Source: Escherichia coli (GTDB taxonomy: Bacteria > Pseudomonadota > Gammaproteobacteria > Enterobacterales > Enterobacteriaceae). Taken from it: a stretch of 64,000 bases of DNA. Position numbers and translations under genes: made by a program. Below, piece after piece: positions 5,935 through 8,186 of the stretch. A model generated the notes under the pieces. That model was given only the letters and a program-made list of their open reading frames with translations. It was not told the DNA's origin and made no database searches. Where the stretch lies: assembly GCF_017348835.2 (NCBI RefSeq), contig NZ_CP072315.1. One strand, written 5' to 3'. How positions within the stretch are numbered: position 1 is the stretch's first letter; each line of letters begins with the position of its first letter.

Positions 5935-6395
5935 CTATAATCTCAAGGCTCTGTCATCGTTATTTTTTTCATGGCCTTTATCTTTAGGCCGGGCATTACC
6001 TTTATCCTGCGTCGGCTCGGCTTTGTCTCGGCCTTTTTCGCGGGTATCATGCTGCTGCTCTTTGGCATAGCGTTTGAGTTGTTCCAGCTCAAGCGCGGCG
6101 GTTTTGAACCCTTCCCGGCTGGCCGCTTTATCCAGCTTCTTCTCATCGTCGGTGTAAATGACGGCTTCGTGTTTAGCGCGGGTGACAGCCACGTAATAAA
6201 CATCTTTGGCCGTTGTGAGTGATCGGGTATCCATATTGATAAAAACCTTGTCGCAGGTCAGCCCCTGAGCACTATGAACGGTCGAAGCGTAAGCCAGCCC
6301 TAAGTACATAGGTTTGTTGGCATCAATTTTTACCAGCCGCCCTTTCTCGTTCTCCAGCAGTACCTCACCACTCTGGACGCTTTTTACCTTAAAAC
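5935..6395 (-). pseudogene. 3' fragment of a RecD/TraI-superfamily helicase gene, interrupted by the Tn1721-type inverted repeat
   Basis: Open frame ...FKVKSVQSGEVLLENEKGRLVKIDANKPMYLGLAYASTVHSAQGLTCDKVFINMD... carries the helicase C-terminal motif (YA-TVH-SQG) and starts abruptly at the IR boundary. Confidence 0.5.
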
Positions 6396-6433
6396 GGGGG
6401 AACCGCAGAATTCGGAAAAAATCGTACGCTAAG
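6396..6433 (+). repeat. 38-bp terminal inverted repeat of a Tn1721/Tn21-subgroup Tn3-family transposon
   Basis: GGGGGAACCGCAGAATTCGGAAAAAATCGTACGCTAAG matches the GGGG...ACGCTAAG end pattern; Tn1721 itself carries a chemoreceptor-like gene next to its IR. Confidence 0.7.
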
Positions 6434-6584
6434 CTAACGGTGTTCTCGTGACAGCTCTTTGACTAGGCTTTCTAAGGCCATTCTGATAGCCCTGACTTCC
6501 TGAAAAGCCATGGCTAAAATTTGTGCGGCTAAAAGGGATAACCGATGGTAAAGTAAGTTATCCCTGTCGAGATACTGAAAAGCG

Positions 6585-8162
6585 TTATCCTCGTTTTTCC
6601 CAAAACTGTTTTGCCAGTTCGCTCAGAGCGCTAGTTAACTGAGCGACAGATTTCGCACTTTGCAAATTATTCTGCCCGGTCTGTACATTGGTATCAGCAG
6701 CATCGCGTATATTGATAATACTGCGGTTTATGTCTTCACTTACTGCTCCCTGCTGCTCGACCGCAGTCGCTATTTGCGCGTTCATGTCGGTAATTTCGTT
6801 AACGCGTTGGCCAATTCCATCAAGAGCTGTAGCTGCTTCCTCTGCGTGAGCTACACTCGTGTGCGCTTGCCGACTACTTTGCTCCATGACTGTAACAGCG
6901 GATTGCGCTCGCTCTTGTAGAGCGCTGATCATGCTTTGAATATCCGTTGTCGATTGCTGTGTGCGAGCAGCAAGACTGCGAACCTCATCGGCGACAACAG
7001 CAAAACCACGCCCCTGCTCACCAGCACGCGCGGCCTCAATTGCTGCGTTGAGTGCCAACAAATTCGTTTGCTCGGCGATCCCTCGTATAACGTCAAGAAC
7101 TTTTGATATCTCGTTACTTTGACCTTCAAGCTCATGAATAACCTGAGTGGCTTGCCTAATTTCACCTTCAAGGGCAGTGATTGACTGGCTTGTGTGGGCT
7201 ACCAGACGCTGGCCAGATGCCGTCTCAGTGTCTGCTCTTCCGGCCGCATCTGCAGCATGCTGTGCATTGCTCGCAACCTCTTGAATGCTTGCCACCATTT
7301 GGTTTACTGCCGTTGCTATTTGATCTGTCTCTGCCTGCTGCTCAACTGTAAGTACATTGCTTGACTCAATATCCTTTAGTAGGCCTCGGGTGTGTTCGCT
7401 AAGCCGATTTGATGCATCACCTATGCGACCTACTATGGCGCCTGTTTCAGCTTGCATCATTCGTAAAGCAAACTCTATTTGGCCAAACTCATCGGTGCGC
7501 CCAGTGTAGAGGGATTGACTTAATGGGTTATTGGAAATATTCCTGGCTCTTTCAACCAGTCTTCCAAGAGGAGAGAGAATAGCCAAAACACTAACAGAGC
7601 TTAAGCTTCCTGACATTAAAGTGGCTAACAATAAGCTGCTTATTGATGTATCAGTAAGCATGCCGGCAGCCATTGCGCTTGATATAATACTACCCCATAT
7701 GAGCAAGAGTATTTTCACGGAAAAGCTAGCAGCCAATTTCGGCCTCGCGGCCTTCCCGCTTCTCAATTGAGCATATAATTTTTCCGCAGCCAAAACCTGC
7801 TCAGGTTCAGGCTTGGTCCTTACAGACTGGTATTCAACAATCGAACCATTCTTAGCTATTGGCGTTACATAAGCACTTACCCAATAGTGGTCGCCATTTT
7901 TACAGCGATTTTTTACTAGCCCCATCCATGAGCGGCCAGATTTTAATGTACTCCACATATGCTCAAATGCAGCAGGCGGCATATCTGGGTGTCTTACGAT
8001 GTTGTGAGGCTGGCCTAATAGTTCTTCCTCAGTGAAACCACTGATTTTAATGAAGTCAGGATTAACGTACGTGATATGGCTTTGAGGGGAGGTAGTCGAA
8101 AGAATATTGGCATCTTTTGGGAGTTCTAAGTTTCGACCCGTCACTGGTAAATTCTGGCGCAT
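6585..8162 (-). CDS. Aer-like methyl-accepting chemotaxis protein (PAS sensor plus MCP signalling domain), Tn1721 orfI-like
   Basis: From ATG at 8162: [70 protein letters not shown] (PAS) ...[31 protein letters not shown] (MCP core). The supplied ORF runs on into IS26. Confidence 0.85.
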
Positions 8163-8186
8163 AAGAACCTCAAGGGTTGGCTGTTT

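Follow-up and report, generated by a model that had tools for sequence, protein, structure and literature searches.

The left end of Tn1721 consists of a terminal inverted repeat (IR) and orfI, described as a 'chemotaxis-like' gene (reference X61367, as cited in PMC4899885). In the R1215 resistance island and its AbaR/AbGRI2 relatives, this end is found as a boundary formed by the Tn1721 IR, a truncated orfI (ΔorfI) and IS26, and a unique boundary of the R1215 kind serves as a lineage marker (PMC4899885). In Salmonella IncHI2 plasmids, according to PMC9019673, truncated pieces of Tn1721 are flanked by IS26 and IS26-v1 and act as translocatable units; the same source describes IS26-v1 as a G184N variant, which reportedly has a higher cointegration activity, citing Pong et al. 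2019.

The window analyzed here, the whole 64,000-nt stretch of Escherichia coli contig NZ_CP072315.1, carries a Tn1721-end/IS26 remnant of this already known kind, in which nothing departs from the published patterns. As in R1215, the orfI end of Tn1721 has been retained where a resistance region ends, with IS26 abutting it; however, R1215 shows 1,707 bp with a truncated orfI and mucB as host gene, whereas the window shows 1,791 bp with a complete orfI and mobF as host gene (PMC4899885). The locus also resembles the Salmonella IncHI2 mosaics, with which it shares the plasmid type, the host and the presence of IS26/IS26-v1 around ΔTn1721, although neither the mobF fragment nor the mcp/IS26 junction is described in the accessible part of PMC9019673.

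Direct reading of the sequence together with the ORF list gave, for window positions 5000 to 9600, a gene order of IS26, a 3,142-bp segment (5045-8186) and a second IS26 (Table 1). We regard it as highly probable that this segment is an immobilized relic with a layered history, whose chemoreceptor gene is most likely silent or weakly expressed.

Table 1. Features of the IS26-bounded segment and its edges, in window coordinates.
Feature	Position	Strand	Details
IS26, left edge of module	4225..5044	+	14-bp IRs at 4225 and 5031
MBL-fold metallo-hydrolase gene, 3' remnant	5045..5172	+	final 42 codons and stop, 128 nt
Hypothetical 95-aa ORF	5638..5925	-	protein WP_033544594.1
MobF (TrwC-type) relaxase-helicase gene, 3' fragment	5935..6395	-	codons 816-968 of 968, and stop
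Tn1721 insertion target pentanucleotide	6391..6395		AAAAC on + strand, GTTTT in mobF sense
Tn1721/Tn1722 38-bp terminal IR (orfI/mcp end)	6396..6433	+	GGGGGAACCGCAGAATTCGGAAAAAATCGTACGCTAAG
orfI/mcp of Tn1721, intact	6585..8162	-	525-aa Aer-like PAS-HAMP-MCP chemoreceptor
Leftover 24 nt of native mcp upstream region	8163..8186	-	Shine-Dalgarno GAGG at 8171..8168
Putative IS26 target, outer 8 nt of leftover mcp upstream DNA	8179-8186		GGCTGTTT
IS26 with wild-type Tnp26, in place of res-tnpR-tnpA	8187..9006	+	IRs at 8187 and 8993; Tnp ORF 8232-8954

Comparison with the intact Tn1721 of E. coli plasmid pF138-3 (L005) bore out the original prediction of a Tn1721-type end. Window positions 6395-8186 are 100% identical over 1,792 nt to positions 6410-8201 of L005, and both the IR and the chemoreceptor gene agree fully with the L005 copy. 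The left end retained in the window (6396-8186) has 1,791 nt, all identical to the intact transposon, and is made up of the 38-bp IR, orfI/mcp and 24 nt upstream of the gene. The IR, which had been predicted at this same position, is an exact match to that of the intact Tn1721 and is found in a single copy in the 64-kb window, with none expected by chance in shuffled sequences. As in the intact element, orfI/mcp lies beside the left IR, encodes a 525-aa protein and is transcribed towards the IR. The annotation of pF138-3 shows the full Tn1721 layout, with mcp, tnpR, a transposase fragment, tetR, tet(A) and a gene encoding an EamA-family transporter; the interval of about 3 kb that corresponds to tnpA has no listed CDS in L005, the PLSDB gene table being incomplete.

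In relation to the intact Tn1721, res, tnpR, tnpA, IRRI and IRRII are missing beside the end found in the window, and the IS26 at 8187 takes the place of res, tnpR and tnpA. No second Tn1721 IR was found in the 64 kb when a 29-nt core was searched with up to three mismatches allowed. With one IR, and no adjoining tnpA, tnpR or res, the Tn1721 end is unable to transpose by itself; it is a remnant and not a functional transposon, and could be mobile only as IS26-bounded cargo, in the form of a translocatable unit or a pseudo-compound transposon. The only other match of L005 to the window is a tet segment. This second piece of Tn1721 (ΔtnpA, tetR and tet(A)), located at 15222-17448, shows 99.87% identity to L005 12050-14276, is inverted relative to the mcp end and begins precisely with the outer base of IRRI; furthermore, it adjoins strB/strA/sul2, as in the sul2-floR-tet(A) resistance islands.

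Both IS26 copies that bound the segment are 820 bp long, have 14-bp terminal IRs and lie in direct orientation, as in a pseudo-compound transposon or translocatable unit with 5045-8186 as cargo. They differ at three nucleotides: the left copy encodes the G184N variant of Tnp26 (IS26-v1 type), with RIINATLGF instead of the RIIGATLGF of the 8187 copy, and the latter is annotated as IS26 in record L001. Two other copies in the window, at 32696-33515 and 36683-37502, likewise differ at 3 nt from the wild-type copies (8187, 22107 and 27341). In addition, a 58-bp partial duplicate of an IS26 terminus, with the 14-bp IR as its end, adjoins the complete IS26 at 22107-22926; it is located at 22927-22984 and represents a seventh IR-bearing IS26 end, with no element attached.

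The IS26 at 8187 shows no 8-bp target duplication, with GGCTGTTT (8179-8186) on one flank and GCGCGACG (9007-9014) on the other, as expected after deletion or recombination. Nor do the outer flanks of the IS26 pair, CGTAAATC and GCGCGACG, form a target duplication. The reciprocal junction, composed of IS26, GGCTGTTT and the native Tn1721 upstream sequence, is carried by the K. pneumoniae plasmid NZ_CP086725.1, which indicates that the breakpoint arose by IS26 transposition into GGCTGTTT and was rearranged later. At the other edge of the segment, the MBL-fold metallo-hydrolase gene is whole in pQnrB4_020042 (L002 7352-8128), where position 8001 corresponds to window position 5045; since the module of pQnrB4_020042 reaches left through the complete gene, the left IS26 of the window is an extra truncation. 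Outside this copy, window positions 4200-4224, ATGAAAATCGGCTATGCACGTAAATC, resemble the first eight codons of a resolvase-type gene (MKIGYARK...), which would have been interrupted there by the left IS26.

The chemoreceptor CDS, annotated by RefSeq at the same coordinates as WP_001323889.1, is full length and 100% identical to the Tn1721 copy, in agreement with the prediction of an intact gene. Its product of 525 residues contains the Pfam domains PAS_3 (residues 31-114), HAMP (194-239) and MCPsignal (325-486). By BLASTP, it shows 33% identity to Aer of E. coli K-12 over about 500 residues (E value of 2e-76), with a strongly conserved PAS domain in which the RHPDMP motif is kept, and the PDB chain that matches its sequence best bears the name 'Aerotaxis receptor' (E value of 2.8e-65). 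The NCBIfam search gave no Aer equivalog, and its top match was CtpM, through the signaling domain. Architecture and sequence together justify the 'Aer-like' label that had been proposed. The protein shares with E. coli Aer a cytoplasmic N-terminal PAS domain, a membrane hairpin, a HAMP domain and an MCP signaling domain; unlike Aer, which has 506 residues, it is a 525-aa plasmid- or transposon-borne paralogue.

In L005, 309 bp (8178-8486) separate the ATG of mcp from tnpR, and only the first 24 nt of this interval are kept in the window. The original prediction placed IS26 25 bp upstream of the chemoreceptor ATG; the junction with IS26 was found, although the distance is 24 nt (8163-8186). 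The retained sequence keeps the Shine-Dalgarno GAGG, five nucleotides before the ATG, and 24 nt is too short for a sigma-70 promoter plus leader. On the mcp strand of L005, three promoter-like sites are found (CTGACA-18-TAGATT, TTGACA-16-TAACTT and TTGGGC-16-TAAAAT), all of them past the breakpoint, the last one ending 1 nt outside it. The replaced part of the 309-bp interval includes res and every promoter-like site. No mapping of the native orfI promoter was found in the accessible literature, and the probable loss of this promoter, as originally proposed, is supported by geometry and consensus scans.

It had also been proposed that any expression of mcp would depend on read-out from IS26. 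A reading in which IS26 drives useful expression of mcp, either by a hybrid promoter (the -35 of its IR plus a -10 within the 24 nt) or by an outward promoter of its own, appears improbable. The outward -35 in the IS26 terminal repeat is known to form hybrid promoters elsewhere (PMC7986276), and in the window this hexamer, TTGCAA, faces mcp, with the Shine-Dalgarno GAGG still in place. However, the hexamers located 16-18 nt further on (ACCCTT, CCCTTG and CCTTGA) match TATAAT at none or one of the six positions, a relaxed scan also gave no acceptable -10, and a transcription start there would fall at or past the Shine-Dalgarno sequence. Furthermore, the consensus scan of the mcp strand between 5000 and 9100 gave no promoter-like site with at least 9/12 matches, and both tnp26 and the genes annotated to its right lie on the opposite strand, with tnp26 pointing away from mcp. 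Weak 8/12 promoter-like matches are found on the mcp strand within IS26, and low-level read-out may arise from these sites. IS26 thus supplies no recognizable outward or hybrid promoter at this site. On the basis of the sequence, mcp is more likely to be unexpressed or very weakly expressed than driven by IS26, and it is probably silent, with weak read-through from across IS26 as the most that would be expected.

The distribution of the segment was analyzed among the plasmids of PLSDB. Over its first 20,186 nt, the window is colinear with the Salmonella enterica plasmid p2016062-242 (IncHI2A, China), with a single mismatch (99.995% identity). Roughly ten PLSDB records carry the full 5045-8186 module with an identity of about 100%; for the most part these are IncHI2 plasmids from Salmonella, Enterobacter and Raoultella, and some plasmids from E. 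coli are also among them. The exact 50-mer that spans the mcp/IS26 junction is found in nine PLSDB records, and in four others an oppositely oriented IS26 is joined to the same base, which gives about 13 in all. Those with the opposite orientation are L009 (NZ_CP050045.1, positions 5768-5805), NZ_CP086725.1, NZ_CP123268.1 and NZ_CP123261.1; in L009, the flank of the Tn1721 IR also differs from that of the window. These junctions may reflect the use of the same target twice, or a rearrangement.

A reading in which the junction base, 24 nt upstream of mcp, is a hot spot for IS26, or has been selected as leaving an intact translatable receptor that benefits the host or the plasmid, is very unlikely. 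The same base is joined to IS26 in either orientation, in several backbones and with differing IR flanks, and in every case mcp and its ribosome-binding site are left intact, as such a reading would have it; but the Tn1721 end is found in more than 3,500 PLSDB records, against about 13 with this junction, and far more of them have IS26 inside mcp or keep the native mcp upstream region (over 800 records for the latter). Shared descent plus recombination accounts for the pattern, and no expression signal accompanies it. Slightly less credible still is that the gene would be an advantageous plasmid-borne energy-taxis receptor, retained through low expression by IS26 read-through.

One record bears on the order of events at the locus. 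An E. coli plasmid from Panama (L008) shares 5,816 nt with the window at 99.98% identity, from the IR through IS26 into ISCR2, but shows another flank at the IR. This other flank could be due to recombination within mcp or to transposition after the arrival of IS26 and, because of this plasmid, the insertion in mobF may have come either before or after the arrival of IS26. The simplest reconciliation would be recombination in the mcp segment of 1.8 kb, a sequence shared by thousands of plasmids. To the right of the 8187 IS26, at 9238-9461, we also observed five spaced copies of a palindromic motif of about 20 nt, CATCGCC-N6-GRCGATG, which belong to a 32-nt repeat family with a spacing of 35-59 nt. 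They sit just upstream of a gene encoding a 245-aa serine recombinase (9586-10323), of which they may be binding or res-like sites, and the block is conserved beside ISCR2/floR in several plasmids.

On the other side of the IR, the minus strand at 5935-6393 is an open frame that encodes a helicase C-terminal domain (UvrD_C_2), confirming that the IR abuts an in-frame helicase fragment. By tblastn against PLSDB, the fragment corresponds, with 100% identity, to residues 816-968, the last 153, of a 968-aa MobF relaxase. Relaxase-helicases of the MobF family are of the type of TrwC from the IncW plasmid R388; in comparison with them, the fragment is only the C-terminal helicase tail. The intact mobF is found in plasmid p2 of C. 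freundii MEI002 (L003), a 33-kb MOBF/MPF_T conjugative plasmid with the order stbA-stbB, a gene encoding a type IV secretion DNA-binding (coupling-type) protein, mobF and the 95-aa ORF, and window positions 5320-6397 are 100% identical to it over 1,078 nt. The protein encoded by the 95-aa ORF is common to L001, pQnrB4_020042 and C. freundii p2, and the ORF adjoins the 3' side of mobF in the donor backbone; Pfam and NCBIfam searches gave no match for it. Codons 1-815 were nowhere in the window when this was searched by tblastn with the intact MobF, and the fragment lacks the N-terminal relaxase domain and most of the helicase. It is a non-functional remnant, a pseudogene fragment; RefSeq names it 'helicase C-terminal domain-containing protein', yet it is part of a gene.

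The intact mobF reads GACC-GTTTT-AAGG, whereas the window reads IR-GTTTT-AAGG, and homology to the intact gene ends at the outermost base of the IR, plus a chance overlap of 2 nt. GTTTT is the insertion target, present as one copy of the expected 5-bp duplication; no second copy is visible, a single transposon end being present. With the intact gene known and its homology broken exactly at the IR, the interruption of a relaxase/helicase gene by the transposon, which the original prediction had put forward, is upheld. The N-terminal part of mobF is found in 95 PLSDB records, mostly plasmids of about 34 kb, and a 76-nt chimeric query for the reciprocal mobF/GTTTT/IRR junction did not find it in PLSDB. 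Two high-coverage matches to this query were discarded as two-piece matches, from related plasmids with a TnAs1/Tn1722-type element just 3' of mobF, at a different site. In the related 38.5-kb MOBF plasmid L007 (NZ_CP084210.1), a Tn1722/TnAs1-type tnpR-tnpA element (9438-13323) starts at the 3' end of mobF, and represents a second, independent insertion of the Tn1721 family near mobF in the same plasmid family. That the helicase fragment and the IR were brought together by a chance deletion or recombination endpoint, and not by transposition, is the least credible of the alternatives: a single transposon end and a single pentanucleotide copy leave the 5-bp duplication not demonstrable, and the reciprocal junction is missing from PLSDB, but mobF homology that breaks off precisely where a complete 38-bp IR begins is the signature of transposition, and deletions of the IS26 type have their endpoints at the ends of IS26 rather than at IRs of the Tn3 family.

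With transposition into mobF as the preferred reading, the segment was built in several steps. A transposon of the Tn1721/Tn1722 type entered GTTTT, at codon 816/817 of mobF, in a small MOBF/MPF_T conjugative plasmid like p2 of C. freundii MEI002, as the break in homology with the intact gene shows. IS26 would have entered the 8-bp target GGCTGTTT, located 17-24 nt upstream of orfI/mcp, a mechanism suggested by the junction observed there. The loss of res, tnpR, tnpA and the second IR is probably due to later IS26 events, and IS26 activity may then have moved the tail of the MBL-fold gene, the 95-aa ORF, the mobF tail, the IR and mcp into the IncHI2 multiresistance region.

The finding leaves the knowledge of Tn1721, IS26 and chemoreceptors unchanged. 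Its main use is that of the mobF::Tn1721 and mcp/IS26 unique junctions as plasmid lineage markers, which link the IncHI2 multiresistance region to a few plasmids of Salmonella, Enterobacter, Raoultella and E. coli, and to a donor family of MOBF plasmids of about 34 kb.
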